Below are positions 8,546 through 29,830 of a stretch of 45,072 bases of DNA, in pieces (within the stretch, counting starts at the first letter, position 1; the number at the start of each line of letters is the position of its first letter). Under the pieces are notes generated by a model that saw nothing but the letters and a program-made list of their open reading frames with translations, was not told where the DNA came from and did no database searches. Both the position numbers and the translations under genes were made by a program. The stretch is from an uncultured archaeon (GTDB taxonomy: Archaea; Asgardarchaeota; Thorarchaeia; Thorarchaeales; Thorarchaeaceae). The DNA is taken from assembly GCA_964610875.1 (NCBI GenBank), contig CAZSWP010000020.1, positions 18,602 to 63,673 on the forward strand. Direction: 5' to 3'.

Positions 8546-9187
8546 CTATCGCCAGTCATCACCAAATGCAGGTTTCAATTGATTTGGAATTGGGTCATCC
8601 ATCCAAGGAAGAGCCTTCTCCTTTATTCTACCACCTAGAATTGCCACTCTCTTACCGAGTTCTTTTGCCGCTTCAATAGCTTCAGTATCTCCTCGAATAT
8701 CACCCGGATGAAGAGCAAATCCCTGAGGCCACATATAGACACCTGGAATAATCATCTCCTTTACATACATGAAAAACATCAATTCTTGAAGAACAGTATC
8801 AGAACCTGAACGTCTAGCTACACTTATAGCTCCACCGACTTTTCCTCTCAGATTTACAAACCGCCCAACACGGTCTATAAAATTCTTCATCAAAGTGGGA
8901 ACTGTAGCATAGTAAGAAGGTGCACCAAATATGATTCCATCAGCCTGCTTTAACTCCTCAACAACTGAATTCAGGTCATCGTCTTGAGCGCATTCACCAA
9001 GTTCTGTACATCGCCAGTCTTGAGCACAATTCCTCAAATTAAGTTCTGAAAGATCAATAAGTTGAATTTTTGCACCGACTTCTTTTGCCGCTCCGAGAGC
9101 CTCTTGAACAAGAATGTTCGTATTTGCTCCACCTCTTGGGCTACCTGAGAAACCTAGGACATATGATGTCAATTCTGTTCCATCCAC
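8546..9187 (-). CDS. Iron-sulfur flavoprotein / multimeric flavodoxin (Isf/WrbA-like)
   Basis: GFSGSPRGGANT FMN-binding loop, CAQDWRCTELGEC cluster motif, ADGIIFGAPSY, MKNFIDR, LRGKVGG. Confidence 0.88.
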   Translation of the reverse strand: MDGTELTSYVLGFSGSPRGGANTNILVQEALGAAKEVGAKIQLIDLSELNLRNCAQDWRCTELGECAQDDDLNSVVEELKQADGIIFGAPSYYATVPTLMKNFIDRVGRFVNLRGKVGGAISVARRSGSDTVLQELMFFMYVKEMIIPGVYMWPQGFALHPGDIRGDTEAIEAAKELGKRVAILGGRIKEKALPWMDDPIPNQLKPAFGDDWR

Positions 9188-9281
9188 TGTCTGATGTAAT
9201 CCATCTCTCTGTTTAGTTTTCTGTTTACGCTTAATATCAAGTCAATTTACTTTGCTCGCAGAATACTACCAGTATCATTTG

Positions 9282-10781
9282 CTATGGTATTACTGCACTT
9301 GCTGCAGGATATGCGAAATCAAGCACGAATGATGCAAATGGGAATAACACGAACATTAGGATGACACATATCATCACCGCTACAAGTGGAGCACGTGCAA
9401 TCTTGAGTTTCCCATTTTCTTTTGCTTCAGAGAAGTACATTCTTCGCACAACTCTCAGATAATATCCGAGAGAGAAGACTGCATTCAATGCACCGATGAC
9501 GGCTAGCCAGATGAGGTCAGCCTCGACTGCACTCATAAATACCATGAACTTAGGCAAGAAACCAGCAGTGGGGGGTATTCCAGCTAGAGCGAACATGAAC
9601 ACACCCATAGCACCTGCCAAGAGAGGTGATCTCTCTTGTAGTCCTTCTAGTTCATCATATGACACACGCTTCCCAATCTCAATAGAAATCGCAAATACCA
9701 AAATGAAAGCTCCAGCTTTCATTAGAGCGTGAATGAATGCAAGGAAGAACGCGGATGCAAGACCATACTCAGTTCCAACAGCAATACCTATCATGAGATA
9801 ACCCATTGTTGCAATACTTGAATATGCAAGCATTCGCAGAATATCTTTCTCAGCAAGTGCAAGAAGATTTCCTATTATCATCGTCAACACTGAAACAACA
9901 ACTATCAACCATGACCACTCAAGTTGTGCAACGAAGAAGCCTACCATGAATATCCTGACAAGCGCACTAATCCCAGTCTTCTTTGTTGCGCCAGAGAGAT
10001 ATGCAGTGACACTGCCGTCAGCTGTACTATAAGTATCAGGAACCCACATCCATCCTGGAAAGATGCCAATTTTGAATCCAAAAGCAATGATGAAGAAGAC
10101 CATTGCAAGTAGTAGGGTGTATGCCGAAGTCTCCATTGTTGTTGACCCCCAGATCGTATTAACAATAAGTGCAATCTCTGACAACGCAGTAGCACCGGTA
10201 ACTCCAAACACTAATGCAATACCCAAAATCATGAACATTGTTGAAACAAGACCCATGACAAAATATTTCGTTGCACCATCAATTGCTCCTCTATCAGGAC
10301 CAAGTGCAACGAGAATATAGGTTGGTGTTGACATCATCTCCCAAGCCAGGAATAGAGCTACCAGGTCCGTAGCCATGACCACCCAGATTGCACCTGCAAA
10401 TGATATCAACAAGAGAAAATCATACGGTCCTTTATTACCTCCATAGAGGGTTGAAGATAGCATTACCAAGAATGCAATTATCAGGATGATGTAGATGAAG
10501 AAATCTGCAAAAGCATCCCTTACGAAAAGTCCACCAAAAGATGAACCATAGACAACAGGGTCGAACATAAGGAGTTCAAACCATGCTAGAATAATACCAG
10601 CAATACTGACTGGTAACGGATTTGCCTTCAATCCGACCGCAAGAGATAGTGAAGCAAAGATGATCAATGTGAGTGCTGGAAGTGATCCAATCCAAGCTTC
10701 AGGTACTATTTGCAGAATGAGGTCTCTCAAAGGTGCTAGTATTGTCTGTAACCAAGTGATGAATGAAGTTAATGTCTGCAT
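9282..10781 (-). CDS. nuoN: Complex I-like subunit N (antiporter-like)
   Basis: AWEMMSTPTY, GATKYF, FKIGIFPGWMWVPDTY, RMLAYSSI, LAGIPPTAGFLPKF. Last membrane subunit, with a TAATG overlap to nuoM. Confidence 0.92.
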   Translation of the reverse strand: MQTLTSFITWLQTILAPLRDLILQIVPEAWIGSLPALTLIIFASLSLAVGLKANPLPVSIAGIILAWFELLMFDPVVYGSSFGGLFVRDAFADFFIYIILIIAFLVMLSSTLYGGNKGPYDFLLLISFAGAIWVVMATDLVALFLAWEMMSTPTYILVALGPDRGAIDGATKYFVMGLVSTMFMILGIALVFGVTGATALSEIALIVNTIWGSTTMETSAYTLLLAMVFFIIAFGFKIGIFPGWMWVPDTYSTADGSVTAYLSGATKKTGISALVRIFMVGFFVAQLEWSWLIVVVSVLTMIIGNLLALAEKDILRMLAYSSIATMGYLMIGIAVGTEYGLASAFFLAFIHALMKAGAFILVFAISIEIGKRVSYDELEGLQERSPLLAGAMGVFMFALAGIPPTAGFLPKFMVFMSAVEADLIWLAVIGALNAVFSLGYYLRVVRRMYFSEAKENGKLKIARAPLVAVMICVILMFVLFPFASFVLDFAYPAASAVIP

Positions 10782-12289
10782 TATGGAATGCCTCCTGCAA
10801 TGAGTTCTGCAACAGGTGCAACAAGTATCAAGATTAAGTCAGGCCAGATACCAAGGATAAGTACAGGAATCATCATCAGAATAGGTGCAACGAGGTCACT
10901 CCAAGGTGCCTCATGAAGTTCCTTTTCGGGATCTGGGTCAGAAAACACAATGCGATTTAGTGTCCATAGAAGATAACCAACAGTAATGAATATTCCAAAG
11001 ACAATGAAGGCAGTCCAGATGTAAACAATAACAGAACCAAAGAGAACTAGTACTTCAGCGATGAAGCCACTGAATCCAGGTAGTCCAAACGCAGCAAAAG
11101 ATGCCAAGATGAGTAATGCTGACATCTTTGGTGCTTTACTCATAAGACCAGTCACTTCTGGAATCTCTCGTGTACCTGCTGCATATTTCATCTGTCCAGC
11201 CATGATAAACATCACAGATATGATGGTTCCATGAGACACCATCATGAAGACCGCACCTTGAATTGCTAATTCTGTACCAACAGCAACTCCAAGCAATACC
11301 CATGCCATGTGATTGATTGATGTGTAAGCAACCATACTCTTCAAGTCAGTCTGAGCCATTGCAGTAAAAGCAGCATAGATACAGGTGAAGATGGCAAGAG
11401 CTGCGAATGGAATACTAAGCCGTGCAAATGCATCAGGGACCATCCAGAGACCTAAACGAACGAAAGCATATCCACCCATTTTTAGTAAGATTCCAGCAAG
11501 TATCACAGACCCAGGTGTCGGTGCTTTTACGTGCGCATATGGAAGCCAGTTGTGCATTGGCCATACAGGCAGTTTCACACCAGCTCCTGCAAATACTGAA
11601 AGAGCAAATCCAATCTGAACCATTGGTGCAAGACCAATAGAACGAAGTGCAATCATATTGAATGTGTTAGGTTCGGCAATGAAGTAGAGTGCAAAGAATC
11701 CGACCATCATGATAGCTGAACCGAGATGCGTGTAAATGAAGAACTTAACAGCAGCGTGTTGACAACCCTCTTCGCCCCATTGTCCGATTACAAAGAACAT
11801 AGGAATCAGTACTAACTCCCAGAAGATGAAGAAGGCAAATAGGTCAAGTGACATGAAGACTCCAAGTAAGCCAGATTGTAGAATCATTAAGAGACCGTAG
11901 TAGAAACCTTCAGACTTTTTGATATGGTTCGAACTAATGACCGCGATGAACATCACCAAGTTGGAGAGGAAAATCATCGCTACTGAGATTCCATCGACGC
12001 CAAGCATAATCGAGGTCTCTGTTACGAATATTCTACCCAATGATAACTCCCATATGAACTGCATACCGAGATAGGGATCTGCAGAATCAATTGGTGAAGT
12101 ATCGAGAGCTAGTGCAAGCACAATAGCCAATCCTAGCTCGATTGCGGTTATTAGAAGAACAAGTACTCTTGCAGCTTTTCCGCGAAGCAATATTGCCAGT
12201 GCACCAGCGATTATCGGAAGGATTAACATGAAGGGCAGGATATCCATTGGAAGGAGCCCGAGAATTGTCTGTACTATGGCAAACTGCAT
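10781..12289 (-). CDS. nuoM: Complex I-like subunit M
   Basis: GVDGIS, FWELVLIPMF, AVKFFIYT, VKLPVWPMHNWLPYAHVKAPTPGSVILAGILLKMGGY, MVSHG, LPGFSGFIAE. Confidence 0.93.
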   Translation of the reverse strand: MQFAIVQTILGLLPMDILPFMLILPIIAGALAILLRGKAARVLVLLITAIELGLAIVLALALDTSPIDSADPYLGMQFIWELSLGRIFVTETSIMLGVDGISVAMIFLSNLVMFIAVISSNHIKKSEGFYYGLLMILQSGLLGVFMSLDLFAFFIFWELVLIPMFFVIGQWGEEGCQHAAVKFFIYTHLGSAIMMVGFFALYFIAEPNTFNMIALRSIGLAPMVQIGFALSVFAGAGVKLPVWPMHNWLPYAHVKAPTPGSVILAGILLKMGGYAFVRLGLWMVPDAFARLSIPFAALAIFTCIYAAFTAMAQTDLKSMVAYTSINHMAWVLLGVAVGTELAIQGAVFMMVSHGTIISVMFIMAGQMKYAAGTREIPEVTGLMSKAPKMSALLILASFAAFGLPGFSGFIAEVLVLFGSVIVYIWTAFIVFGIFITVGYLLWTLNRIVFSDPDPEKELHEAPWSDLVAPILMMIPVLILGIWPDLILILVAPVAELIAGGIP

Positions 12290-12290
12290 T

Positions 12291-14504
12291 CTAGAGCACC
12301 CCCATTGTGACGAGAATTACAAGCACCATTATTCCGATTCCGAAGATGATGACTGCAACATAATCATTCACACGACCTGTTTGAATTGTTTGTCCATCTG
12401 ACGATGCATCAACAGCAATAGTGGACACACCCTCAGCGAAAGCATCAACCACATTGTCATCAAACCAGCGTATCCTCCTTGCAAGTTCCTTAGCGGTAGC
12501 AGCTGATTTGAAGTCTATTCCGTCTATGATAATATTGTCAACCTTCACGCGCCACCATTCTGCAAAGTTGAGGAACTTATTCAGAATCCAGAAATATGCC
12601 TCATTGATGTACCATCTATGACGCAGGAAATTGTAGATCTTTCTCCTAAATCCGGACTCTGGAATTATTGTGTTTTGTTTGTCTGCGTTCTTGATGTAAA
12701 TCATGTACCCGGGGATTCCACCCAATGCAAGTGCACCCAGTGTAATGATGAAAGGAATGAAGCCTTCACCAAATTTCACGAGAATCATTTCTTCAACAAA
12801 TATCTGAGTCCATGTGTGAGTAGTCCCGAGTAACAAATTCTGAATGAACGGGAAGAATACAAATGCCGCAACAGAGAATGCAGCAAGAATGTAGAGTGGA
12901 ACCATCATCGCCGGACCAGGGTCATGTGGCGCATTATGATAATCCTCGTGAGATTCTTCTTCAGGGTTTGACTCCTTCTCACTTTCAGAATGTTCAGAAC
13001 CAGCTTCTTCATGATTCAATGTCCCATAGAAAGTCATCCCCATGAGTCGTAAGCTGTAGAAGATTGTACATGCTGCAGCAAGAACTGCAAACGCAAAGAG
13101 TATCCAACCAATAGGTTCATGAAGTGCAAGTTCGTAAGCATATTCAATTATTGAGTCCTTCGACCAGAATCCAGAAAATGGTGGAATTCCAGCAAGTGCA
13201 AGTACTCCAACCCACATCACGATGAAGGTCTTTCTCATATGTTTCTTGAGACCTCCCATTTTTGTGATGTATTTCGTATGAAGTGCGTGAATTACACCAC
13301 CTGAGGCAAGGAAGAGTAATGCCTTGAAAGCACCATGGGCCACTATATGTAGAACTCCACCTATGTAGGCATGTTCGTAATGAGCTAAGAGACCTCCAGT
13401 ACCCATTGCCAACATCATGTATCCAAGTTGACTGAGAGTAGAGAAGGCTAGCACTTGTTTGAGCTCATTAGATACCATTCCCATAGTTGCAGTCATGAGA
13501 GCCGTGACAGCACCGATGACTGCCACTATGATGAAGAATGTGGTAGCCGCTTCCAATCCGACATATTGTAGTATATTGAAAGCATGCTCTTCTCCATGTT
13601 CGCCGCTTCCTGAGGCAGCAACCATTGTGATGAGAAATCTTGCTGTGATGTAGACCCCAGCCTTCACCATTGTAGCAGCATGAATAAGAGCTGAAACCGA
13701 AGTAGGTCCAGCCATAGCTTCAGGAAGCCAAATTTGCAATGGAGCCTGTCCAGACTTACCAATTGCACCCATGAAGATAAGCAAGAACGTTGGCACAAGC
13801 ATTCCGATGCCAGCCATCACCTGCCACCAGTCTTGGGCATTGCTTGCCATATCAGTGAAGGAGAAGGTGCCAGTGAAGAAGAAGAGGAGAAGGATTCCTC
13901 CCAACATGAATGCGTCACCAATGCGAGTGACGATGAAAGCTTTTGTTCCACAGTGAGTGTTGTACTCACCCTCTGTTTCGAAGTTCAAGAGAGGATTATC
14001 AGTTTCGATATCTGTAGGATCTTTCTCTGGAGGAGTACGTTTGTCGTTCCAAAAGCCAATCAGACCATACGAACAGAAACCCATTATCTCCCAGCCAATG
14101 AATGCAATGAGTAAATTGTTGCTCAACACAAGTGTGAGCATACCACCTCCAAAAGCCAACATTAGGAAGAAGAATCGGTCACGGTCTTCCTCACCTGCCA
14201 TGTACTCGGTAGAATAAACATAGATGAGGAAACAGAGTGTGCTTGATAGTACACCCATGATTACTGAAAGCGGATCAAGAAGGACTTCAAAGTTCAGTCC
14301 AAGAGACTCTATCCAAATCCAACTCGTTCTTTCGGTAGTTCCTATATCTAAAAGGAGTGACCAGCAGAGAATCATGGTTATTCCCATAAGGATTGCAGGA
14401 GTCCAGTCCCGTAGTCGTTCATTGAACTTGCCAACCAGTGGCACTAGTATTGAACCTGCAAGAGGTATCACGAAGATGAGATAGTATGGTAGTCCAAGTA
14501 ACAT
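12291..14504 (-). CDS. nuoL: Complex I-like subunit L with extended C-terminal transverse helix
   Basis: GWEIMGFCSY, KAFIVTRIGD, GKSGQAPLQIWLPEAMAGPTSVSALIHAATMV, HGAFKALLF, GFWSKD, and C-terminal QTGRVNDY plus a final TM helix. Confidence 0.95.
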   Translation of the reverse strand: MLLGLPYYLIFVIPLAGSILVPLVGKFNERLRDWTPAILMGITMILCWSLLLDIGTTERTSWIWIESLGLNFEVLLDPLSVIMGVLSSTLCFLIYVYSTEYMAGEEDRDRFFFLMLAFGGGMLTLVLSNNLLIAFIGWEIMGFCSYGLIGFWNDKRTPPEKDPTDIETDNPLLNFETEGEYNTHCGTKAFIVTRIGDAFMLGGILLLFFFTGTFSFTDMASNAQDWWQVMAGIGMLVPTFLLIFMGAIGKSGQAPLQIWLPEAMAGPTSVSALIHAATMVKAGVYITARFLITMVAASGSGEHGEEHAFNILQYVGLEAATTFFIIVAVIGAVTALMTATMGMVSNELKQVLAFSTLSQLGYMMLAMGTGGLLAHYEHAYIGGVLHIVAHGAFKALLFLASGGVIHALHTKYITKMGGLKKHMRKTFIVMWVGVLALAGIPPFSGFWSKDSIIEYAYELALHEPIGWILFAFAVLAAACTIFYSLRLMGMTFYGTLNHEEAGSEHSESEKESNPEEESHEDYHNAPHDPGPAMMVPLYILAAFSVAAFVFFPFIQNLLLGTTHTWTQIFVEEMILVKFGEGFIPFIITLGALALGGIPGYMIYIKNADKQNTIIPESGFRRKIYNFLRHRWYINEAYFWILNKFLNFAEWWRVKVDNIIIDGIDFKSAATAKELARRIRWFDDNVVDAFAEGVSTIAVDASSDGQTIQTGRVNDYVAVIIFGIGIMVLVILVTMGVL

Positions 14505-14515: not shown

Positions 14516-16030
14516 TCACCCCAGAATCCCGGAAACAGCTTCTACTGCTGGCTGAATTATGTCCAGAGCCAGACCTGGGAATATTCCAAATAGCACAATA
14601 AGCACACCAAGAATAATCATAGGTATAGTCATAGAGCGAGGTGCTTCCACAATGTTCTCCAACTCTTCAGGATGGGGTCCGAGGAACACGCGCCACAGAA
14701 ATCTAAGCATATATCCGGCACTCACGATTGAGCTTGAAACTGCAAGTATTGTCAATATCAAAAATTCAGGTCTTGCAAGTATACCTCCAGAGAGAATAAC
14801 AGCCTGAAAACCTCCATAGAACATCATCCACTCACTTGCGAAACCGGACAATGGTGGACTCCCTGCAATACTCAAAGCACCAATAGCCGCAGCGAATGCT
14901 GTGATGGGCATTTTATTCGAGAGACCTCCCAATTTAGAAACGTCTCGTAATTTCGTCCGGTGGATGACCGCTCCTGCAGTCATAAACAAGAGACCCTTTG
15001 AGAATGCATGATTAATGAGATGGAAGAGACCTCCAGCAATACCAAATGTTGTGTACATTCCTAGTGCAAAAAGCACGTAGCCCATCTGTGATACCGAAGA
15101 ATAAGCAAGAAGCCGCTTGATATCCATCTGAGCAAGTGCCATGAAGCCACCGTAGAACATAGTCAGTACACCGATCACACCAACCCAGAATGAAAGGGCT
15201 GCTGCGGCAGGACCTAGAGTAATCATACCGAATCTAACAAGGGCATACGCACCAGTTTCAATCATTGCACCTGAAAGCAGAACAGAGATAGGTGTTGGTG
15301 CCTCAGCGTGGACTGGAGGAAGCCACCAGTGAATCGGAAAAACAGCCATCTTCACTAGAAATCCAGCAGCCAATAGAACGAAGATTAGTTTGAGCATTTC
15401 AATCTGACCTATGTAGGTGGGCAACATACTGGTGATGACCTGAAGCTCAAATGAACCAGTAAAGAAGTATAGTAACCCAAACCCGACAAGAATACAGACT
15501 GCACCAGACTGAGTGTAAAGCCAGAACTTCATAGCCGTTCTTTTCCTAGTTTCTGGAAGACCCCAGAATAGGATGAGAAAGTAGCTGGGAACAAGCATGA
15601 GCTCCCAAGCAATGAAGAACTCAAGTAAATTGGTTGCAAGAGTCACCCATTGCATTCCCATTAGAAAGAACAATTGATTCGCAAAGAAAGTTGGTTTGCT
15701 GTGCTCATGTTCTGTGTATCCTACAGCATAGACAACTGACAGAAAACCAAGAACTACCACTGCGAAAGTTATGGGAAAAGCAATGCCATCAAGAAATAGA
15801 CCGAACTCACCAAGGACTGTAGACCATGTCATAGATTCTAAAGCAACACCACCTTCTACCATCACCCTGTAAAAGGGAGGAAACATAAGAACCATGCTTA
15901 TTCCAGAGAAGAAAACTGCAATCTTACCAGAACTATTCTCTAAACGACCTTTCAATAGATAGATCAGAAGACCACCAATGAACAACACTACAAGCGAAAA
16001 TGTCATGAATGGTAGTTCGATCATCTGCAT
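14516..16030 (-). CDS. Additional (fourth) antiporter-like subunit, NuoM/MrpD/HyfB-like
   Basis: AWELMLVPSY, VKMAVFPIHWWLPPVHAEAPTPIS, KRLLAYSSVSQMGY, HLINHAFSKGLLF, GFASEW. Start most likely ATG 16030 (TAATG overlap with the nuoI stop, GGAGG SD upstream). Confidence 0.9.
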   Translation of the reverse strand: MQMIELPFMTFSLVVLFIGGLLIYLLKGRLENSSGKIAVFFSGISMVLMFPPFYRVMVEGGVALESMTWSTVLGEFGLFLDGIAFPITFAVVVLGFLSVVYAVGYTEHEHSKPTFFANQLFFLMGMQWVTLATNLLEFFIAWELMLVPSYFLILFWGLPETRKRTAMKFWLYTQSGAVCILVGFGLLYFFTGSFELQVITSMLPTYIGQIEMLKLIFVLLAAGFLVKMAVFPIHWWLPPVHAEAPTPISVLLSGAMIETGAYALVRFGMITLGPAAAALSFWVGVIGVLTMFYGGFMALAQMDIKRLLAYSSVSQMGYVLFALGMYTTFGIAGGLFHLINHAFSKGLLFMTAGAVIHRTKLRDVSKLGGLSNKMPITAFAAAIGALSIAGSPPLSGFASEWMMFYGGFQAVILSGGILARPEFLILTILAVSSSIVSAGYMLRFLWRVFLGPHPEELENIVEAPRSMTIPMIILGVLIVLFGIFPGLALDIIQPAVEAVSGILG

Positions 16031-16461
16031 TAACGGAACCTCCTCCCACGCCATTCAAGTGGCTCTCTTTCGAGATTTGTTATCTTATCAGGCCCATATA
16101 CTAAATCTTCTCGGTCCGCTTCACTCAAATCGACAATCGGAGTGTGGAACAAGGCGTCGAATCTACAAGCTTCTACGCAATGACCGCAGAAAATGCATCG
16201 AGTATAGTTGAAATACAGTGCTGCATCTCTCTCATATTTCTGATCATTTTTGTCAATTCTAATTGCTACTACGGGACATGCTCGAACACATTGACCACAA
16301 GCTGTGCAATTCTCACGAATATGTATATGCCGACCTCTTGTGCGCTCAGGATACTCTCTGTCTTCAAAGGGATAGAAGTACGTGAAAGGTCTCTTGAACA
16401 CTTGCCTGAATACATGTTTCAAGACAGTGAATATGTCGTCTAAAACGTCAAAGAATCCCAT
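16030..16461 (-). CDS. nuoI: Complex I-like subunit I (2x[4Fe-4S])
   Basis: TYFYPFE, RTRGRH, CTACGQCVRACP and CIFCGHCVEACR. Confidence 0.93.
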   Translation of the reverse strand: MGFFDVLDDIFTVLKHVFRQVFKRPFTYFYPFEDREYPERTRGRHIHIRENCTACGQCVRACPVVAIRIDKNDQKYERDAALYFNYTRCIFCGHCVEACRFDALFHTPIVDLSEADREDLVYGPDKITNLEREPLEWRGRRFR

Positions 16462-20240: not shown

Positions 20241-20250
20241 GATTATCACC

Positions 20251-20966: not shown

Positions 20967-21323
20967 ATGTTTGATTTGAGATGGTATCAAAGGGGCACAT
21001 TCTTCTATTATCTTGGATTAATTGTGGGAGCCGCATTCTGTGGGGCCTTTTACGGTGTTATTCTTATGGCATCTCTACCACTTACGTTGTTCAACTATAT
21101 GATGCTTGGGTCTAGTGGAGTGGTTCTTCTTGGTTCTCTGTTATTTGCTCATCTTCATGGTAGAAAGCCACGCCTTTTCCTAACAATACTAACTGCAATA
21201 CCTGCTGGAGTCTTTGGATTTCTCAGCGTGAAATTATTTCCCGGACTTGGACTTGTCTATTTCGGATGGTTGATGTTTGGAATTCTAATCTTATCATCTG
21301 TGTATTCGTGGACAAATGAGTGA
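20967..21323 (+). CDS. Small 4-TM membrane protein
   Basis: 118 aa with four hydrophobic segments. Converges on the next gene with a 2-nt gap. Confidence 0.7.
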   Translation: MFDLRWYQRGTFFYYLGLIVGAAFCGAFYGVILMASLPLTLFNYMMLGSSGVVLLGSLLFAHLHGRKPRLFLTILTAIPAGVFGFLSVKLFPGLGLVYFGWLMFGILILSSVYSWTNE

Positions 21324-21325
21324 AC

Positions 21326-21805
21326 TCAATCTGTAGTTTCTGTAGAAGTAATTGGTTCACCTTCTTCTTCAACTAATTCTTCTTGACCTGGTGGATAATG
21401 AAGTTTTGAAGTATCAATTATTCCAGGACTTGTACTCTCTTCCACTGGTGGAAACATCATTATCGCTATTGCGATAAGAAATGCTGACCCTGCGCCCCAA
21501 GTAGTGATAAGTGTGCTTGAGTCTAGTGCCCAATCATGATATATGAAAACAACTATTGCATAGAGCAGAGTTAATACGCCAGAGATTGACATCATCAATG
21601 ATTTGATTTTCCCTGTATCGGGTTTCAGAAATCCAGTATATAGAATCAACAGTAGCAGTGGACCTCCAAGTACAGCTAGAAGTAATGTAATACTTCCAAT
21701 CGTACCTGTCATCCAAGTATAGAAGAAGCTGAAATAATAGGCACTGAGAAGCATTACACCCATCCAAATCATGCAATAGTGAGAACTGTCCTCGCGAAGT
21801 CTCAT
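21326..21805 (-). CDS. 4-TM membrane protein with acidic C-tail, translationally coupled to the FAD-NuoB fusion
   Basis: ATGA overlap with the fusion gene at 21802-21805, four hydrophobic segments, tail QEELVEEEGE. Confidence 0.75.
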   Translation of the reverse strand: MRLREDSSHYCMIWMGVMLLSAYYFSFFYTWMTGTIGSITLLLAVLGGPLLLLILYTGFLKPDTGKIKSLMMSISGVLTLLYAIVVFIYHDWALDSSTLITTWGAGSAFLIAIAIMMFPPVEESTSPGIIDTSKLHYPPGQEELVEEEGEPITSTETTD

Positions 21806-23742
21806 TTCATCATCCCCACTGAGTCTTGATTCTCATGCTTTTGTTGCCAGTGTGTAGTACCAGCACGAATCTTGTTTTGAAGTATAATATGCGCTCTCAC
21901 AAAGTCTGAAGGTTTGGGAGGACACCCTGGAATGTAAACATCAACAGGCACCACTTTATCAGGCGGTGTCATGAGTGAATATCCATCATAGAACATTCCT
22001 CCGCTAGCAGCGCATTGGCCAAAGGAGATAACAAACTTTGGTTCAGGTAGTTGCTCGTATATTCTTCGGAGGCGAGGCGTCATCTTCTTTGTGAGAGAGC
22101 CGGAGATCCATAGAACATCACATTGTCTCGGTCCAAATAGTGGCAACATTCCAAATCTCTCGATGTCCCATCTTGATGCAACAGCTGCTGCACCATCAGC
22201 CATACAACATCCAAGTCCGTATTGAACTGGCCATGGACTATGAGCACGACCCCATCGCAATAGCCATTTTACGGGTGGTAGATTCTGTACCCATTTCAGC
22301 AGAATAGGTGCAATGCGACCAAAGCCGTTTCTAAACAAATCATACCCAATCCACATGAAGTACTTACCAACCCGAATCATGAACGGCAGCCAGAATGCAA
22401 ACACCTTACCTGGGTTAGAGACCTCATTTGGGTCATACTTGAGCTTGGCAACTCGTATTTTTGCAAGCCGTTTCTTGCCAAAGTACTGAGAGGCATAGTT
22501 AGCGAACCAAATACCGGTTGAATGCACATGACCTCCGTGACGTTGAGCAATCTTAAAGATGACAAAACTTTGTGACCATGAGAGAAGATAGAATGGTCGG
22601 CGCTCATCTTCGAGGAAGTACCCCATCATCGTCGCACCACTCTTAGAAGTTATATAACCATCAATTCCAGCTTCAGCAGATGCCTGCTCAAATTGGAAAT
22701 CATCAAGTATTGCGTGGAGGTTCTCAAGGGGGGCAAATGCCTGACCCACAACTAATGTCGGACCTACTTTCTTAATCTTCATTGGATAGAATCTATCATG
22801 CCACTCATGATCTGCTACATGTTCATCATAAACAGTGCCTCTGAATTCATCAACTACCTCTCTGAATGTCTGTTCACCAGCTTCTACTTCTGCGGGAGAC
22901 CCTTCGTAAGCAACTAAGAGAACACAATGATAAACAGGATAGGGGAACGGTTCTTCCTCCTCCCAAGCTTGTTTCTTTAGATCTGTATACTTGCTCTCTT
23001 CAAACTTCATAGTATATGGAAGAGGTCCTCTCTCTAGCATATGCTCAATTGCCATTGTTAATTGGTAATTTTCTTCGAAGCTTGCTACAAGTGGACGAAT
23101 TTCAGTCGTCTTCTTAATCTTGATTTTTACCTCTGTAATGATACCGAGGATACCTTCGGTATCGCAGAAAAGATCGGTGTCTTTTGTTATGATGAGCTGA
23201 CCTGTTGGAAGTACTACCTGAAACTCAAGCACATTTTCGTTGACATTACCATATTTCAGGCTACCAATACCATCTCCACCTTGTGCCACCCATCCACCAA
23301 CTGAAGCTGAAATTCCAGAAGAAGGATAACATCGTAAATCTAACCCTTGACGATTCAATTCATGCTGAAGGTCCTGCCATGTTATTCCTGGCTCAACAGT
23401 AGCAGTGAGATTTTCTCCATCAATGTCAATGATATTATCCATTCTGCGCATGTCAACAATAATTCCGCCCTTTCGAGGGATTGCTCCACCATATCCGCTA
23501 GTGCCTGCAGCTCTTGGTACTAGAGGTATTTTCTCTTTGTTTGCAAATTTATAGAGTTTCATAATCTCTTCAGGATTAACTGGTTGGACAGCCGCATCAG
23601 GAGTGTTATTGATGAACCATCCTACCTGTTTTGGTAGAGATCCTACATCTGTCTTGAAGAGATGGAGTTCATGTTTAGCAGTGACCAGTCGGGCTCCAAA
23701 TATTTCTTCTAGAGCATCTAACTGCTTTTTTTTCAGACCCAT
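21802..23742 (-). CDS. nuoB: Fusion of FAD-binding (GlcD/Dld, VAO-type) oxidoreductase and complex I subunit B
   Basis: aa ~1-450: PDAAVQP, VPRAAGTSGYGG, TVEPG, ASVGGWVAQGGDGIGSLKYG, EGILGIITE, YDPNEVSNPGK. aa ~490-646: PWPVQYGLGCC, DIERFG, PRQCDVLWISG, YEQLPEPKFVISFGQCAASGG, VDVYIPGCPPKP. One uninterrupted ORF. Confidence 0.93.
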   Translation of the reverse strand: MGLKKKQLDALEEIFGARLVTAKHELHLFKTDVGSLPKQVGWFINNTPDAAVQPVNPEEIMKLYKFANKEKIPLVPRAAGTSGYGGAIPRKGGIIVDMRRMDNIIDIDGENLTATVEPGITWQDLQHELNRQGLDLRCYPSSGISASVGGWVAQGGDGIGSLKYGNVNENVLEFQVVLPTGQLIITKDTDLFCDTEGILGIITEVKIKIKKTTEIRPLVASFEENYQLTMAIEHMLERGPLPYTMKFEESKYTDLKKQAWEEEEPFPYPVYHCVLLVAYEGSPAEVEAGEQTFREVVDEFRGTVYDEHVADHEWHDRFYPMKIKKVGPTLVVGQAFAPLENLHAILDDFQFEQASAEAGIDGYITSKSGATMMGYFLEDERRPFYLLSWSQSFVIFKIAQRHGGHVHSTGIWFANYASQYFGKKRLAKIRVAKLKYDPNEVSNPGKVFAFWLPFMIRVGKYFMWIGYDLFRNGFGRIAPILLKWVQNLPPVKWLLRWGRAHSPWPVQYGLGCCMADGAAAVASRWDIERFGMLPLFGPRQCDVLWISGSLTKKMTPRLRRIYEQLPEPKFVISFGQCAASGGMFYDGYSLMTPPDKVVPVDVYIPGCPPKPSDFVRAHIILQNKIRAGTTHWQQKHENQDSVGMMK

Positions 23743-23948: not shown

Positions 23949-25178
23949 ATGCGGTTTCCTTCACTTGATGCCCGTGAACTCCAAGAAATGGCCTTTACCT
24001 GCGCACAATGTAGCTTTTGTCAGGTTGGAAATGGGGCGTGTCCAACATACAAAGTGAAACGGCTTGACAGCTATTCTGGGAAAGGTAAGATGCTTCTTGC
24101 TCGTGCGTTAATGCAAAACAGACTCAGTGAGAAAGAGGGATTAGAAGGTCTCAAGGATGCAGTCTTTGGATGCACACTCTGTGGAGGTTGTGAGGAAGTC
24201 TGTCAGGTTGATATTCCCTTTGTAAAAATCTATCAATTATTGCGACATGATTTCTTGAAACTTGGTATGTGGCCAGAAGGGCTTGTTCTAGCCAGAGATA
24301 CGCTACTGAAGTCAAACAACATTCAAGGTCAACCACAGATGGACAGATTGGAGGGATGGTCATATTGGGCACCAGATGAAGACATGATTCTTGATGCTGA
24401 AAGGAGAAAAGCAAAGACTGCATTCTTTGTTGGGTGTGCTTCATCGTTTAAAGGAGTTTCAATTCAATCAACTATAGCCATGGCTTTGATTATGAATAAG
24501 ATTGATGAAGGATTCACTATGCTTGGCGAAGAGGAATATTGCTGTGGAGCTCCAATGATAATGAGTGGAGATTTTGAAACAGCTAGGGCTCTTGCACTTC
24601 ATAATATCGAAGAGTATCAAAAGTTAGGCGTAGAACACGTTGTGACTAATTGTCCAGGTTGTTACAAGATGTGGGATCATGAATATCATGAGTTTCTTGA
24701 TATTGACCCACCATTTGAGATCCATTATGGTCCAGCATATTTTGCTGAATTATTGGATAATGGAAGATTCAATGGGCTTCTCACTAATCCATTAGATAAG
24801 ACAATAACATTTCATGATGGGTGTGACGCTGGACGCAATACCGGTTTCTTTGAAGAGCCAAGAAAGGTTCTAGAATATATTCCGGGCATCATTTTTGAAG
24901 AACTACCACACAACAAGAATAATTGCTACTGTTGTGGCTCAGGCGGCGTGTTACGGGCAATTGACAATGAATTTGCTGGTAATATCAGCGAACTGAAGGC
25001 TAAGGATATAGATGCCACTAACGCAGAAGTCGTATTATCAGGATGTCCCTCATGCGTCGAATACATGCACAGTCAATTACCAACAGCGGGAGTGAATGTA
25101 GTTTCAAAGGACATTATTGTGATGCTTGCTGAATCTATGGGATTCACGTGGGAAGGACTAGATGAGGTCTACGGCTGA
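23949..25178 (+). CDS. HdrD/GlcF-like Fe-S oxidoreductase (2x[4Fe-4S] plus two CCG domains)
   Basis: CAQCSFC...CP and CTLCGGCEEVC, then FVGC...YCCG...TNCPGC and HDGC...YCCGSGG...SGCPSC. Confidence 0.92.
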   Translation: MRFPSLDARELQEMAFTCAQCSFCQVGNGACPTYKVKRLDSYSGKGKMLLARALMQNRLSEKEGLEGLKDAVFGCTLCGGCEEVCQVDIPFVKIYQLLRHDFLKLGMWPEGLVLARDTLLKSNNIQGQPQMDRLEGWSYWAPDEDMILDAERRKAKTAFFVGCASSFKGVSIQSTIAMALIMNKIDEGFTMLGEEEYCCGAPMIMSGDFETARALALHNIEEYQKLGVEHVVTNCPGCYKMWDHEYHEFLDIDPPFEIHYGPAYFAELLDNGRFNGLLTNPLDKTITFHDGCDAGRNTGFFEEPRKVLEYIPGIIFEELPHNKNNCYCCGSGGVLRAIDNEFAGNISELKAKDIDATNAEVVLSGCPSCVEYMHSQLPTAGVNVVSKDIIVMLAESMGFTWEGLDEVYG

Positions 25179-26227
25179 GGTGGAGGTCGAAGAAGACCAC
25201 GTAGAAAGTATAAGACGATTCCAAACATCACTGCACCAATCACCGTTATGAAGAAGACATCTAAGTTAAGATTCGCAACAATGAATGCGAATGACATGAA
25301 TAGTCCTACTAGCAAATGGACCATCACAGTGGCAACATTGGCGGGGACAAGTCTTGGAATTTCATCATAATATTTCCATGCGGTACCAACACCAATCGCT
25401 GCCAAGGGGAGAGTGATGAAGGAATATAAGACCCAGATAGTTGTGTAACTGAATGCTATTGGTAATAGAATCGACAAATAGGTGCAAAGCATTAGAAATG
25501 CATAACCTCGAGATGCTCTTTTCTTTCCTAACCGGACAACAATGGTTCTCTTTCCCGCACCTCGATCAGCACGATAATCCGGAAATTCGTTAATATAGAG
25601 TATAGCACTGATTAATATTGCAATTGGAAGTGAATAAAGAATAGGTGTGATCTTTAACTCCATTGTTTGGACATAGTATGCTCCCAAGACCATTAGAACT
25701 CCAAAGTTGAGTCCGATGAAAACCTCCCCAATACCTCGCTTAACAAATCTGAAGGGAGGAGCGGTGTAGAAAAAGCCCGAACCTGCACCGATAACTCCAA
25801 GGACGATAATTATGATGCCTCTTTGATATGCCAAGTATAAACCAATCAAACCACCAATAGCAAAAAACACCATAGCTCCAATGAATACTTCACGAGGGGA
25901 TAAATAGCCAAGTTGTATGGTCCTACTGCCTCCTGTAAACGGTCGGATGAACTCCACATTGATATCATCAGTTCCTGTTTCATCCTCTGAATGGTCAAAG
26001 TAATCATTTGAAACGTTTGCTCCAAGATGAAGACAAACACCTGCAATGAGTGTTAGAATGAAATAGTCAAAGAAGAACACGCTTACTTCATACCAAGCAA
26101 CTGCTGTCCCCAGAATAACAGGAATGATACTTGCAGTAAGAAAAGGTGCTCTGAGTTCCATAATCCAAGCTTTCAACTTACTTGGTTTTTCCTCCACTCG
26201 GTTTTCTGAAAGCTTGTCTTCAGCCAA
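25169..26227 (-). CDS. menA: 1,4-dihydroxy-2-naphthoate polyprenyltransferase (MenA/UBIAD1 family)
   Basis: LRAPFLTAS, NDYFDH...DD...PFTGGSR, FYTAPP, GIGE, INEFPDYRADRGAGKRTIVVRLG. TTG start; 10-nt convergent overlap with the HdrD-like gene. Confidence 0.88.
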   Translation of the reverse strand: MAEDKLSENRVEEKPSKLKAWIMELRAPFLTASIIPVILGTAVAWYEVSVFFFDYFILTLIAGVCLHLGANVSNDYFDHSEDETGTDDINVEFIRPFTGGSRTIQLGYLSPREVFIGAMVFFAIGGLIGLYLAYQRGIIIIVLGVIGAGSGFFYTAPPFRFVKRGIGEVFIGLNFGVLMVLGAYYVQTMELKITPILYSLPIAILISAILYINEFPDYRADRGAGKRTIVVRLGKKRASRGYAFLMLCTYLSILLPIAFSYTTIWVLYSFITLPLAAIGVGTAWKYYDEIPRLVPANVATVMVHLLVGLFMSFAFIVANLNLDVFFITVIGAVMFGIVLYFLRGLLRPPPQP

Positions 26228-26384
26228 ATGAGAATCCTCGACAGTAATTATGTGAGATGCACTGCTAGTTTCATAGAAAAGGCTTCCCTATAACCTTACA
26301 ATAAACTGCTCTTGAAGGAACTACTATATATGGAGATATGTTCTCTGAAACGTAGCATACGGTTGAAATATGGAGTATCAATGA

Positions 26385-27443
26385 ATGCATGAAGAAGAGA
26401 TGACCAATGGCGGTCCATCTTCAAAGAGGATGGATATGAGAGAGAAGAGGACAATAGGCCATGCAAAAGTCATCGATGACCTAATGCAAATCGAAGATAT
26501 CAGAGTCCGGCTTGATTTGATTAATGAAAGAATCAATGATTTTGTTGATAGAACTATGGGTAGTCCCATTGAGCTTTATTCAACAGCATATCATCTAATC
26601 AAAGCAGGAGGTAAAAGACTTCGTTCGTTACTATTCGTTTTATCATCAGAAGCAGCTGGAGGAACCATTGAGAAGGCACTACCCTTTGCATTGGCAATTG
26701 AGTTGACACAAACAGCCAGTCTCATCCATGATGATATTATGGATGAGGATGAAGTCCGTCGAGGAACAGAAGTCACTCATAAAAAATTCGGAAAAAAAAT
26801 GGCACTCATTGCAGGCGACCTTCTAATTGCACAAGCAGTACATCTTGCTGGACAAAATGCATCCTCAAAGATGATTGAGATGCTAGCAGAAGAAGCCATC
26901 AGTATGTGTGAAGGGCAAGCTCAAGATTTGATGATAAAACTTGATTTAGTTGATTCAGTTAGAATTGATACATATATTGACATGATTGGAAAGAAAACAG
27001 CGGCATTCTTCAAAGCAGCTGGAAGAATGGGAGTAACACTTGCAGAAGCATCTTCAGAAATTGAAACAGCAATAGTCAACTATTGTGAGAATATAGGATA
27101 CGCATTCCAAATTCGTGATGACATTTTGAATATTGTTTCATCAGAAAAAACCACAGGGAAATCTTCCAAATCGGATATTATTGCAGGAAGATGTAATTAT
27201 GTACTATTATTGACAAGTGAGTCACTTAATGAAACTGATAGAAATGAATACTTGCAAGCAGTACAGCAAGCCAATATTCACGAGGCCCTTCAATTCGTGG
27301 AACAGACAGATGCAATACGCCAAGCGGGAAACATGGTTGAGGAATATGTTGATGCTGCAAAGAGAGCCCTCTCAGGACATTCCAGTATTCAAAAAGAGCT
27401 TCTTTTCATACTCGCAGATTTTATGCTAACTCGAATTCACTAA
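26385..27443 (+). CDS. Trans-polyprenyl diphosphate synthase, predicted medium/long-chain
   Basis: GGKRLR, first Asp-rich motif ASLIHDDIMDEDEVRRG, GQAQD, KKTA, second motif FQIRDDILN. Confidence 0.9.
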   Translation: MHEEEMTNGGPSSKRMDMREKRTIGHAKVIDDLMQIEDIRVRLDLINERINDFVDRTMGSPIELYSTAYHLIKAGGKRLRSLLFVLSSEAAGGTIEKALPFALAIELTQTASLIHDDIMDEDEVRRGTEVTHKKFGKKMALIAGDLLIAQAVHLAGQNASSKMIEMLAEEAISMCEGQAQDLMIKLDLVDSVRIDTYIDMIGKKTAAFFKAAGRMGVTLAEASSEIETAIVNYCENIGYAFQIRDDILNIVSSEKTTGKSSKSDIIAGRCNYVLLLTSESLNETDRNEYLQAVQQANIHEALQFVEQTDAIRQAGNMVEEYVDAAKRALSGHSSIQKELLFILADFMLTRIH

Positions 27444-28546
27444 TTCTCCTCGGTTTGAAATAAACTGTCTATGTTTGATAAAACACGCTCGAGCATCAAA
27501 GCCTGAGACTTCAACGTATTCCCATGTTTTCTGACATTGACCCAAATCTCAGTCAGCTCCTTAGCGCCTACTTTCACTGCACTTTCAGGCAATTGTGTGA
27601 CCCAGAAAATACCCTGTGGAAATTCTAGTATTCTGTCAACCAGTAGACGGATGTTGTCCTCATAGATGTCAATCACTTTCGCCATTGATTGAAGATTAGA
27701 TTTTGTAAGTTGAATGAATTTCTTAATCAAGGGATGGTTTCTAAGATCAGGGCGTAGTACCCAAGAGCTCTTTATCAAAGGAGGTCCTGAACGATCCAAC
27801 AAAGATTTTGGATAACCACTTGCTCCTATGATGATTTCAAAATGGGATTGCGATTCTTCATTCAATGCACTTGACATTTCAATAACTGATTCGATATATT
27901 CTGTTAGAGTATCTCCCTTCTCCTTTTTCCATTCCTTCTCAGAAATATCGTTGTGTCTTTTGGCAGTGATATCAATACCCATTGACTTCATCTTATCCAA
28001 GGCATGTTCACATTTCTCAACAGCTTCGTCTAATCGCTTTGGAGTCTGGAGTTCCTCAAGTTTTGAAATGTCAATATACTGCATGTCAATCCGCTCATGA
28101 ACTCTGCTTACCAACTCCCATTCTACAGTATCAAGGACTTCTTCGAAATTCCCGTTATCGCCGAATTTTTTGATATCGCTCCTTATCGAGCCAGACTCTT
28201 CAGGAGCAGTGAGCGTGAAGATTCGATTCATCATATTTGTAATCATAACACGATGCGCTTTCCCTCTACGTACAATGATATTTTGTTCCTCCAGATTTGA
28301 CAAAATATCAAACATATCAGAACCCCGAAGAAGGATTGGTTCCATAGAAATTTCGTTCTCGAAATAAGCTGGAAGGTTCTCACCTTTTATATAATCCTCA
28401 GTGAGTTTTCCTGTCAAAAGTACATAGAGACACAGCTCGCTAAGTTTCTTCACCGCTTCAACTGCAGCAGCGCTAGAATAACCGCCTTCAAGTAAAATCT
28501 TACGCGCGGAGTCTGGAGTGGATATGAAATCTTCTGCATAACTCAT
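27440..28546 (-). CDS. Soluble helical hypothetical protein
   Basis: Long ORF, start likely MSYAEDF (28546). No motif recognised. Confidence 0.7.
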   Translation of the reverse strand: MSYAEDFISTPDSARKILLEGGYSSAAAVEAVKKLSELCLYVLLTGKLTEDYIKGENLPAYFENEISMEPILLRGSDMFDILSNLEEQNIIVRRGKAHRVMITNMMNRIFTLTAPEESGSIRSDIKKFGDNGNFEEVLDTVEWELVSRVHERIDMQYIDISKLEELQTPKRLDEAVEKCEHALDKMKSMGIDITAKRHNDISEKEWKKEKGDTLTEYIESVIEMSSALNEESQSHFEIIIGASGYPKSLLDRSGPPLIKSSWVLRPDLRNHPLIKKFIQLTKSNLQSMAKVIDIYEDNIRLLVDRILEFPQGIFWVTQLPESAVKVGAKELTEIWVNVRKHGNTLKSQALMLERVLSNIDSLFQTEEN

Positions 28547-28633
28547 GAGTTTACATCCTTGCAGGTTCAAATGTAATATGTAGAAAAACATGAAAATCGA
28601 CTATATAGCAGTAGTTTGTATTACTATCATAAG

Positions 28634-29830
28634 TCAAGGTAGGTACTGTGCGGCAAAACTGGCAATTGGAGTAAGAGGAGAGAGAACTACGGGAAGACGA
28701 CACCTAACAACTGATTCTAAACCATGAGTTCCTGTGATGCTCATTGCGATGGATGTTAGAGTATCTGAACTCATGACAATATCTGCTACTCGAAGAATCA
28801 TGAGTGCTGTATATAGTTCTGTACCAATCTCAGTCTTCCATTGTTCTTCATACTTTGATAGAGGAACGTCATATTCAATGTGGTCAGAAACACACTGCCC
28901 GGCAATCTCTCCAGCAACTAAAGCAGTGGGGATGCCACCACCGTTTGAGGCCATAACATGTCCAGCTGCATCACCAGCAAGGATTGCATTTGAAGTGTAT
29001 GTTCTGTCTAAAGGGCCTCCCACAGGGATGAGCGCAGAAACTCTGGATTCAATCTTCATATTAGCAACGTGAGGTTTGACTTGTGGATGGTTAAGAAGCA
29101 TAGCAAGATGATTGCGTAGTGATACCCCCTCAAGAGAATGCGATCTTCTCAAACCCAATCCAATATTTACCATTCCATTACCTTTTGGAATCACCCAAGC
29201 ATACCCGCCAGGTGCTGCTTGACTACCAAAGAACATGAGAACTTCATCATTACTAAAACTCGTATCACTCAGAATGTATTGCATTGCAAAGCTCATGTCA
29301 CGTGTCCGATTCCTATAAGAAAGACCAAGACTCTTGGCTACTATTGAACTGGGACCATCAGCACCAATAATTGCCTTTGCTGTTATTCGGTGTTGTTTCG
29401 CAATATTATTTACTACCAACGAGTGAGGTCCTGAGAAGCCGAGAAATCTAGTTTTTGTACGCAATTCTGCCCCAGCTTGAATTGCTTTTTCCGTAAGCGA
29501 TTTGTCAAATGATTCCCGGTCTATTACATTCATAGCAAAAGGGAAACTGTATCTTTTTCCATTTGGAGCTATAGTAGAAATCACGTTGCTGCGATTTGTA
29601 ATGAAAGCTGATTCTACACGCACAAGCCGTGGTGCACGTTTAGAAGAAGGAAATAATCTAATTATCTCACGAGGAGTAGGTAGCAGCTCACCACATTGTA
29701 TAGGAAGACCAATCTCCTGTCGACGGTCTATCAGAAGAGTACGATATCCATTGGTTGCCAGAACAAACGCTGCAGTACTTCCCGCAGGTCCTGCACCAAT
29801 AACAGCAACATCATAATCGTATTCAACCAT
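28634..29830 (-). CDS. Geranylgeranyl reductase-family FAD oxidoreductase
   Basis: VIGAGPAGS, QCGE, DRESFD, IGADG, GGYAWVIP, AGDAAG, NGGGI. Confidence 0.9.
   Translation of the reverse strand: MVEYDYDVAVIGAGPAGSTAAFVLATNGYRTLLIDRRQEIGLPIQCGELLPTPREIIRLFPSSKRAPRLVRVESAFITNRSNVISTIAPNGKRYSFPFAMNVIDRESFDKSLTEKAIQAGAELRTKTRFLGFSGPHSLVVNNIAKQHRITAKAIIGADGPSSIVAKSLGLSYRNRTRDMSFAMQYILSDTSFSNDEVLMFFGSQAAPGGYAWVIPKGNGMVNIGLGLRRSHSLEGVSLRNHLAMLLNHPQVKPHVANMKIESRVSALIPVGGPLDRTYTSNAILAGDAAGHVMASNGGGIPTALVAGEIAGQCVSDHIEYDVPLSKYEEQWKTEIGTELYTALMILRVADIVMSSDTLTSIAMSITGTHGLESVVRCRLPVVLSPLTPIASFAAQYLP

Follow-up and report, generated by a model that had tools for sequence, protein, structure and literature searches.

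The stretch of DNA analysed here (45,072 nt, referred to as the window; positions without a locus or contig name are those of the window) comes from contig C20 of a Thorarchaeote genome of 3.75 Mb and 95% completeness, whose key-gene relatives nearly all carry the Thorarchaeota label. It encodes a headless complex I homologue with four antiporter-like subunits, in which NuoB is fused to a flavoprotein, and a gene for an HdrD/GlcF-like iron-sulfur (Fe-S) protein lies beside the fusion. We suggest, with a probability of roughly 0.55, that the complex is a pump working between ferredoxin and menaquinone, and that the flavoprotein and the HdrD-like protein form a separate quinone-level enzyme, tethered via NuoB at the membrane surface, next to where quinone enters. 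In the pump, electrons would pass from NuoI via cluster N2 in NuoB to the quinone cavity of NuoB, NuoD and NuoH, coupled to ~5 charges per two electrons; inside the flavoenzyme, FAD, cubane clusters and CCG clusters would form a chain that exchanges electrons with menaquinone. The ferredoxin partner, the menaquinone carrier, the stoichiometry and the direction of flow are what we infer from the evidence below.

The flavoprotein-NuoB fusion and its HdrD-like partner

The fusion is a single frame with FAD_binding_4 (residues 48-185), FAD-oxidase_C (218-447) and NuoB (492-630) domains. Its NuoB domain scores above the cut-offs of TIGR01957 and NF005012 and contains all four N2 cysteines (the tandem C512-C513, C577, and C607), an arrangement of the complex I type and not of the hydrogenase type or that of MBS, the membrane-bound sulfane reductase. 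A sequencing artefact was rejected as the origin of the fusion, as it recurs at 46 loci in close relatives with 70-78% identity, most of them full-length matches.

The same 46 loci provide the conservation counts, in which the denominators are evaluable loci. A small membrane gene follows the fusion in 42/42 loci, nuoA is kept in 40/41, and hdrD is adjacent in 38/41, while the prenyl synthase is found in 22/26, menA within 10 kb in 21/28, and the GGR gene in 17/25. A second membrane gene, divergent from nuoA (20967-21323), is present in 37/41 loci and stays with nuoA when the fusion is separated from it. Such separation occurs in one genome where the fusion is ~24 kb from nuoA and in another where it is on a different contig; menA and hdrD remain beside the fusion. 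An earlier note on this DNA, made from the sequence alone, had taken the parts to be one machine, and the synteny comparison across related genomes bears out the linkage of the fusion, hdrD and menA.

The fusion and an orthologous NuoD are both present in 12 of the 16 Thorarchaeia genera (g1-g12) and both missing from the other four (g13-g16). Outside Thorarchaeia, no fusion was found among 400 Asgard genomes or the 150 best matches from 1.8 billion protein representatives. The fused copies form one clade in the trees of both domains (quick trees, as are the antiporter trees below), and the nearest free NuoBs come from other Asgard lineages. In genus g14 the pump is missing, and an unfused flavoprotein is accompanied by hdrD, menA, prenyl synthase, and GGR. 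The tail end of this flavoprotein (L087:9382-10878 and L088:9442-10941) resembles the first NuoB helix, which suggests that it may be an older fusion truncated upon secondary loss of the pump. At these two loci hdrD is co-directional with the flavoprotein gene, and in the fused genomes it is inverted.

The flavin domain has the VAO/PCMH fold with intact FAD motifs, and its subfamily motifs are W314-x-x-R317, D379-E380-R381, and H407-S-T-G. Missing from it, as from 149 of its 150 top matches, is the His/His/Glu metal site (HxxDGNxH and EHG motifs) known from 2-hydroxy-acid dehydrogenases, and the fusion scores 144 against a GlcD cut-off of 568. The label of a D-lactate or glycolate dehydrogenase was rejected because of the missing metal site. 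Judged by the absent metal motifs, its own conserved motifs and an amphipathic tail, the domain is a distinct subfamily and not a metal-dependent 2-hydroxy acid dehydrogenase. It shares with GlcD/GlcF, LctD/LDHD, and AGPS flavoproteins the fold, FAD motifs, Trp-x-x-Arg, and pairing with CCG Fe-S proteins, but differs from GlcD, LDHD, and AGPS in its low identity (~21%), its motifs, its amphipathic C-terminal tail and the fusion to NuoB. An AlphaFold monomer model of the fusion is confident in the flavin domain and gives it a fold like D-lactate dehydrogenase and AGPS, with TM-scores (by target) of 0.83-0.86 to LDHD; the closest folds include that of AGPS, an enzyme with a lipid substrate. The amphipathic linker that follows (residues 451-490) is likely a membrane-surface anchor, and a similar tail is present on unfused homologues.

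The HdrD-like protein contains two cubane motifs and two complete CCG motifs; its best NCBIfam match is TfrB, under the cut-off. The genome has no match to the HdrE/NarI family. A complex model of the FAD domain with the HdrD-like protein scored 0.91, and the best of three controls 0.00; 58 of 80 solved complexes attain this mark, as against 2 of 110 mismatched pairs, and these counts apply only roughly here. At least 94% of contacts agree between runs, the partner has a pLDDT of at least 89, and the closest contacts join FAD-domain residues 142-145 to the first cubane motif, so that the electron wire of the flavin is predicted to lead into HdrD. Further, among 148 top homologues of the FAD domain, 52 carry an HdrD-like domain in the same polypeptide. 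Together with the adjacency of the two genes, the model and these fusions agree with the earlier note's proposal of the HdrD-like protein as the flavin's partner, and it is predicted to bind the FAD domain as redox partner.

Similar pairs occur elsewhere in the genome. Contigs C4, C5, C14, C19, C36, and C48 carry six further GlcD-like/HdrD pairs, none with the canonical hydroxy-acid metal motifs; the one on C5 is located in a glycerol kinase/glpABC cluster. In total, the genome has seven such pairs and a glpABC (glycerol-phosphate dehydrogenase) cluster. Genes for GcvH (and lipoate ligase) flank flavoprotein/HdrD pairs at L133:2522-6896, L097:8309-11345, and C14:41771-46268 of this genome, and lipoyl carriers might be reoxidised by HdrD-like proteins. 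At L021:6760-8512 and in many other Thorarchaeia loci, hdrD is often followed on the same strand by genes for a 420-aa membrane protein and a 161-aa protein that by eye resembles a pyridoxamine-oxidase-type flavin-binding protein; this is not so in the window. At L018, L024, L040, L050, and L053, a gene of 1200-1500 aa lies between hdrD and the fusion, and the two examined start with CxxCH motifs.

Flavoprotein homologues are also found in other settings, though outside Asgard only about ten hand-picked loci were viewed, a small sample. In Hydrothermarchaeota (L058:7758-12604 and L066), NrfD carries a non-canonical flavoprotein of the same subfamily at its C-terminus; the fusion gene shares its operon with genes for two multiheme cytochromes and a DmsB-like Fe-S protein, and an HdrD-like gene is 1 kb off. 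Another Hydrothermarchaeota locus (L067:6825-15315) has petB, petD, flavoprotein, and hdrD in one run, which converges on genes for a B12 radical-SAM enzyme, GGR, and a methyltransferase, followed by a prenyl synthase. In Ca. Borrarchaeum, an unfused flavoprotein gene is 3.4 kb past nuoN and belongs to a series of genes reading in one direction, which also includes hdrD, an amine-oxidase-like gene, menA, GGR, and prenyl synthase. Other homologues adjoin GcvH and lipoate ligase, or UbiD and a thioesterase, or nothing telling.

A headless pump with four antiporter subunits

No NuoF-family gene was found in the 95%-complete genome (NuoE and NuoG were not searched for separately). NuoF-family genes occur in 28 of 86 family genomes, including genera without the complex, and do not track it. 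Contig C22 carries an FpoF/FqoF-shaped gene with ferredoxin and FrhB domains, which matches FpoF models across their length with a score of 144 (FpoF cut-off, 475). It lies near an Mtd-like gene and is present in 68/86 family genomes, which represent all 16 genera, the four lacking the complex among them. The earlier note had nuoEFG and fpoF both missing, which stands for the NuoF family but is weakened for fpoF by this gene on another contig; with its score under the cut-off, the gene is a weak rival input and no refutation of the headless reading.

The earlier note had also called for a genome-wide search for a free-standing nuoB, and none of the complex I type was found. The lone candidate, on C34, starts with a hydrogenase-type CxxC and pairs with a NuoD on C54 in which both NiFe motifs are present; it belongs to a group 4 [NiFe] hydrogenase split over C33:35275-41288, C34:341-1770, and C54:1212-3921, with three antiporter subunits and K-L-M-N on C33, and was therefore rejected as a canonical nuoB. 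With the only free NuoB-like gene assigned to a hydrogenase, the fused NuoB is the sole NuoB for the complex. Five other NuoB matches are open frames of 271-316 aa, and the two examined in context sit in soluble hydrogenase operons.

NuoD has no NiFe ligands. It keeps the His18/His22 loop, with His22 corresponding to Nqo4 His38, and Cys69, while Met70 is at the position of Nqo4 Tyr87 and Tyr372 at that of MbsL Cys385. In this sequence-based mapping Tyr372 is close by and might substitute for the Tyr87 equivalent; the closest outside relative has the same Met/Tyr pair, which may be a swap of positions. A group 4 [NiFe] hydrogenase identity was rejected because two CxxC motifs are missing in the large subunit, and an MBS identity was rejected on motifs. 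The NuoD homologue of Pyrococcus furiosus MBS (PMC7684303) is the second-best PDB match to NuoD, and the two have in common only the kept Cys85 equivalent and the missing Tyr87 equivalent. MBS has two antiporter subunits, a Na+ module, a MbsJ without tandem cysteines (CxxC), and no His38 equivalent, whereas the complex here has NuoA/J/K/L/M/N and no Cys385 equivalent, and its tandem-Cys NuoB and His38 equivalent are complex I features missing from MBS. As a separate observation, a NuoI-NuoB-NuoD triple fusion of 668 aa with MBS-type cysteines is encoded in Ca. Borrarchaeum (L126:15268-17274), and open frames about as long occur in several further Asgard genomes.

NuoL matches one stretch of cyanobacterial NdhF twice, and its lateral helix (HL) spans 79 residues from a conserved Trp to the Gly that precedes the last helix, compared with 53 residues in both NdhF and the three-antiporter hydrogenase of this genome, i.e., one additional 26-aa unit. 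In three other Asgard complexes with the order I-X-L-M-N, where X denotes the extra antiporter subunit, the helix has 78-79 residues. Across related archaeal complexes it has 53, 79, and 107 residues for three, four, and five antiporter subunits, respectively, the last value coming from a Ca. Borrarchaeum operon with two extra subunits that was assembled from two contig ends. The length of HL has been described to correspond to the number of subunits (PMC7684303, PMC8165549), and 2M complexes carry a 26-aa insertion of such kind, with the warning that it may occur without an extra subunit (PMC9040806). X is probably built into the arm as a fourth antiporter, because the clamp helix of NuoL is 26 aa longer.

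The best model for X is NuoM (TIGR01972, above cut-off), to which it is 32% identical, and it forms its own clade inside an unresolved M-side group. It keeps TM5 Glu151, TM7 Lys235, His349, and TM12 Glu408; at the TM8 Lys position (Lys in NuoM, L, and N) it has Glu266, as do the Asgard orthologues of X. The earlier note had the system move more ions per electron pair than standard complex I. A fourth antiporter in the arm may bring such additional pumping, though X has Glu at the TM8 Lys position.

The four-pump arm is a new member of the published "2M"-type kind; four- and five-antiporter complexes have already been reported (PMC9040806). 2M complex I (via PMC9040806) and Complex_I_3 of Ca. 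Manganitrophaceae also combine a fourth antiporter with a 26-aa insertion in the NuoL lateral helix, and the proposed tie of 2M complex I to reverse electron transport to ferredoxin is shared by our reading. Unlike in 2M complex I, X here is no recent nuoM duplicate but belongs to a clade common to other Asgard complexes, and the system is archaeal and headless, with Glu at TM8 of X and a NuoB bearing a flavoenzyme. Among other Asgard complexes, those at L120:3732-15042 and L121:8184-19433 have the I-X-L-M-N order, a helix of 78-79 residues, a free nuoB, and a NuoD with both MBS-type cysteines, while Ca. Borrarchaeum (L123:1-8492, L135, and L136) has a complex I-like operon with two extra antiporter subunits and the 107-residue helix.

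Quinone carrier, direction of flow, and rival readings

Both menA and an unlinked menG score above their cut-offs. Genes of the naphthoquinone ring pathway (menD, menB, mqnA/D) were not found in the genome, and MqnA/D had no match in the 41 genomes searched; menA and menG without the ring pathway fit salvage of 1,4-dihydroxy-2-naphthoate (DHNA), which is documented in Lactiplantibacillus (PMC8837199). Among the genomes sampled, menG is present in 22/29 from genera that have the complex and in 0/12 from genera that lack it, although these genomes are kin and the pattern perhaps reflects one event; menA is present also in three genera without the complex. The menaquinone-type carrier of the earlier note is thus likely, on account of the adjacent menA and the co-distributed menG. 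The quinone would be made by salvage with MenA, the prenyl synthase, MenG, and perhaps the GGR-like reductase.

By textbook potentials, ferredoxin and menaquinone (MK) are ~376 mV apart. Computed from such potentials, ferredoxin/MK could pay for 4-5 charges, F420/MK for 3-4, and a -190 mV donor for ~1.5, so that a four-antiporter arm fits ferredoxin on NuoI and not a hydroxy-acid-type flavin. In the reverse mode, the flavin/HdrD enzyme and sister dehydrogenases would take electrons from high-potential substrates to menaquinone, while the long arm would spend the ion gradient to lift menaquinol electrons to ferredoxin for H2 or the Wood-Ljungdahl pathway. Alternatively, electrons would flow forward from ferredoxin via menaquinone to HdrD/FAD and an acceptor. 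We slightly favour the reverse mode. Heme-copper oxidase was found in 0/41, bd oxidase in 1/41, and NrfD in 1/86 genomes, and this genome has no oxidase, NrfD, NarI/HdrE, petB, or multiheme cytochrome match; it is this lack of terminal enzymes, together with the seven GlcD-like/HdrD pairs and glpABC, that tips the balance. Complexes with extra pump subunits have also been proposed to operate in reverse (PMC9040806). Tentatively, the whole may form a respirasome-like machine, in which a new flavoenzyme family and HdrD are hard-wired to the quinone site of a four-pump complex I and either power the uphill reduction of ferredoxin or receive electrons straight from it; we consider this stronger version rather doubtful.

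Several observations weigh against the ferredoxin/menaquinone pump with its tethered quinone-level enzyme, or against parts of it. The monomer model places NuoB relative to the flavin domain without confidence (pLDDT <50 at residues 489-541), and the FAD-HdrD score may reflect a resemblance to natural fusions, such that a paralogous HdrD might pass as well. NuoD lacks the quinone-binding Tyr (Tyr87 equivalent), and as the ring pathway was not found in the genome, the carrier relies on salvage or is not menaquinone. The Glu at the TM8 Lys position of X leaves the fifth charge not assured. A bacterial nuoL (L159:7879-9834) has a 79-residue helix though its locus shows only three antiporter genes, and helix length alone is therefore no proof of a fourth subunit. 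Finally, anchorless SdhAB and TfrAB beside fumarases could act as sinks, favouring forward over reverse flow.

The earlier note had the flavin domain and HdrD replace NuoEFG. As an input, they would feed substrate electrons to the NuoI/NuoB wire, from which menaquinone would receive them. The missing nuoF, the failure of the NuoF family to track the complex, and a strictly conserved fusion to a wire subunit would agree with this, and the substrate could be of low potential. In established structures, however, the N-terminus of NuoB is at the membrane surface near the quinone entrance, where the tether would attach, whereas known heads dock on NuoI. The predicted partner of the flavin is HdrD and not N2, the pair persists in g14 without the pump, homologues attach to NrfD or petB/D, a hydroxy-acid-type donor (-190 mV, ~1.5 charges) cannot pay for five charges, and the FpoF-shaped gene exists elsewhere, all of which makes the replacement of NuoEFG unlikely. 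A different head, namely the FpoF/FqoF-shaped protein of C22, would make the complex an Fqo-like F420H2:quinone oxidoreductase with an accessory flavoenzyme. Its architecture, its match to FpoF models and its wide distribution suit this role, and fpoF is unlinked in Methanosarcina, too. It is nevertheless very unlikely, given the low score, the presence of the gene in the four genera without the complex, the Mtd-like gene nearby, which suits a soluble F420/ferredoxin role, and the 3-4 charges that F420/MK can pay.

The remaining alternatives concern what the flavoprotein/HdrD pair does. Electrons may bypass quinone altogether, flowing from ferredoxin through the headless arm to HdrD and a disulfide or polysulfide, or leaving by way of FAD for an organic acceptor; the fusion would keep HdrD in position. 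Such a scheme has precedents in the published models for the headless Fpo and HdrD of Methanomassiliicoccales (PMC7374477) and for Fpo-associated HdrD/GlcD (PMC10667645), and is in keeping with the two complete CCG motifs, the NuoD without a Tyr87 equivalent, and the GcvH/lipoate ligase genes flanking some homologous pairs, which make a protein-bound dithiol a possible partner. We find it about as unlikely as the replacement of NuoEFG, as it leaves aside the linked menA and co-distributed menG, the His38 equivalent and tandem-Cys NuoB of complex I type, and the ties of homologues to NrfD and cytochrome b, both quinone-site proteins. Instead, the pair could be a biosynthetic or tailoring enzyme for a lipid carrier, or an electron supplier to the GGR-like reductase, riding as a passenger on the NuoB of an ordinary ferredoxin- or F420-fed four-antiporter complex. 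This would explain why menA, prenyl synthase, and GGR genes are grouped with the pair in Ca. Borrarchaeum and in Thorarchaeia, whether the latter have the pump or not, as well as the Hydrothermarchaeota pair near the B12 radical-SAM enzyme, GGR, and methyltransferase genes, the homologue by UbiD and a thioesterase, and the closeness of the fold to AGPS. Other homologues are without such neighbours, menA is outside the 10-kb flank in 7/28 loci though hdrD remains, and fusions to NrfD and NuoB suit electron transfer better; the passenger scheme as a whole, pump included, thus appears quite improbable.

Gene organization, known counterparts, and significance

The gene inventory of the earlier note was recovered in full: all 11 core subunits and the extra antiporter, the relocated nuoB fused in one frame of 646 aa to an FAD oxidoreductase, the divergent HdrD/GlcF-like gene, menA, the prenyl synthase, and the GGR-family reductase (Table 1). 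On the minus strand, the fusion and the small membrane gene are followed by nuoA-J-K-C-D-H-I-X-L-M-N in a tight array, which completes the headless core set A, B, C, D, H, I, J, K, L, M, and N in the window. A single-operon organization was rejected, as the genes form several transcription units on alternating strands; a sigma-70 promoter scan was at chance level, this model being unsuited to archaea. The small membrane gene after the fusion had no match to any Pfam, NCBIfam, or Atlas family. The FMN reductase-like gene is probably not a member of the system because its adjacency to nuoN is inconsistent in relatives. Also in the window, the prenyl synthase and GGR genes are separated by a gene for a 383-aa protein without a known family (27440-28591, minus strand), which keeps this position in a few relatives, and a small 5-fold beta-flower protein built from short repeats is encoded at 8119-8469 (minus strand).

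Table 1. Features of the fusion locus in the window.
Feature	Position	Strand	Remark
FMN reductase / iron-sulfur-flavoprotein-like gene	8546-9187	-	
nuoN	9282-10781	-	
nuoM	10781-12289	-	
nuoL	12291-14504	-	
NuoL lateral (HL) helix, aa 631-710	12375-12614	-	
Extra antiporter subunit X, NuoM-like	14516-16054	-	
nuoI	16030-16461	-	short, two 4Fe-4S motifs, no additional input domain
nuoH	16466-17629	-	
nuoD	17614-18750	-	no NiFe site
nuoC	18750-19283	-	
nuoK	19276-19596	-	
nuoJ	19593-20321	-	real start probably ~27 codons within listed ORF
nuoA	20251-20685	-	
Small membrane protein without known family, divergent from nuoA	20967-21323	+	
Small membrane protein, possible accessory subunit	21326-21805	-	overlaps stop codon of fusion
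Flavoprotein-NuoB fusion, 646 aa	21802-23742	-	sole NuoB of complex
NuoB domain, aa 491-630 of fusion	21853-22272	-	
Amphipathic helical linker, aa 451-490 of fusion	22273-22392	-	
GlcD/Dld/AGPS-fold FAD domain, aa 1-450 of fusion	22393-23742	-	
HdrD/GlcF-like protein, divergent from fusion	23949-25178	+	
menA (DHNA prenyltransferase)	25169-26227	-	above TIGR00751 cut-off
trans-Prenyl diphosphate synthase	26385-27443	+	genome's second copy
GGR-family flavoprotein reductase, MenJ/DGGR-like by family	28634-29830	-	

The earlier note's suggestion of a new respiratory system goes too far, as both the four-pump design and the Fpo-associated HdrD/GlcD module have been published. The headless Fpo-like complex of Methanomassiliicoccales, proposed to work with HdrD, also has eleven core subunits and neither NuoEFG nor a linked FpoF (PMC7374477, PMC4153887), and in Bathyarchaeia, Methanomethylicia, and Korarchaeia an HdrD-like protein and a GlcD-like flavoprotein were likewise proposed as partners of Fpo (PMC10667645). 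In those systems the association is hypothesised from unlinked genes and the complex has three antiporters, whereas here there are a covalent fusion, conserved adjacency, four antiporters, and a flavin domain without the lactate/glycolate metal site. For the Asgard lineages Sifarchaeia and Jordarchaeia, a complex I without NuoEFG was proposed to run from ferredoxin to menaquinone, and many Dld genes lie beside hdrD (PMC9723677); the accessible part of that source describes neither a fusion nor extra antiporters nor a link between complex I and Dld-hdrD, and takes the flavoproteins as D-lactate dehydrogenases. Similarly, the available portion of an Asgard complex I survey makes no mention of a four-antiporter fusion complex. 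Our literature search, which covered neither subscription papers nor supplements, found no description of the fusion, and the covalent flavoenzyme-NuoB link with an HdrD partner is apparently an undescribed variant.

The conserved occurrence of HdrD/GlcD with a headless complex in non-methanogenic archaea has been called puzzling (PMC10667645), and the conserved covalent fusion narrows the HdrD/GlcD-complex I hypothesis to two specific proteins, which are amenable to expression and assay. Many archaeal proteins annotated as "D-lactate dehydrogenase" are a different enzyme, and the Asgard complexes with three, four, and five antiporter subunits form a natural series for pumping stoichiometry. 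If the respirasome-like version were true, the long-proposed Fpo-HdrD/GlcD association would have its first physical evidence in the fusion, and the module would be a portable adaptor that was attached independently to NuoB and to NrfD, and placed beside cytochrome b. For Thorarchaeia, the fusion locus points to a quinone-based energy circuit.

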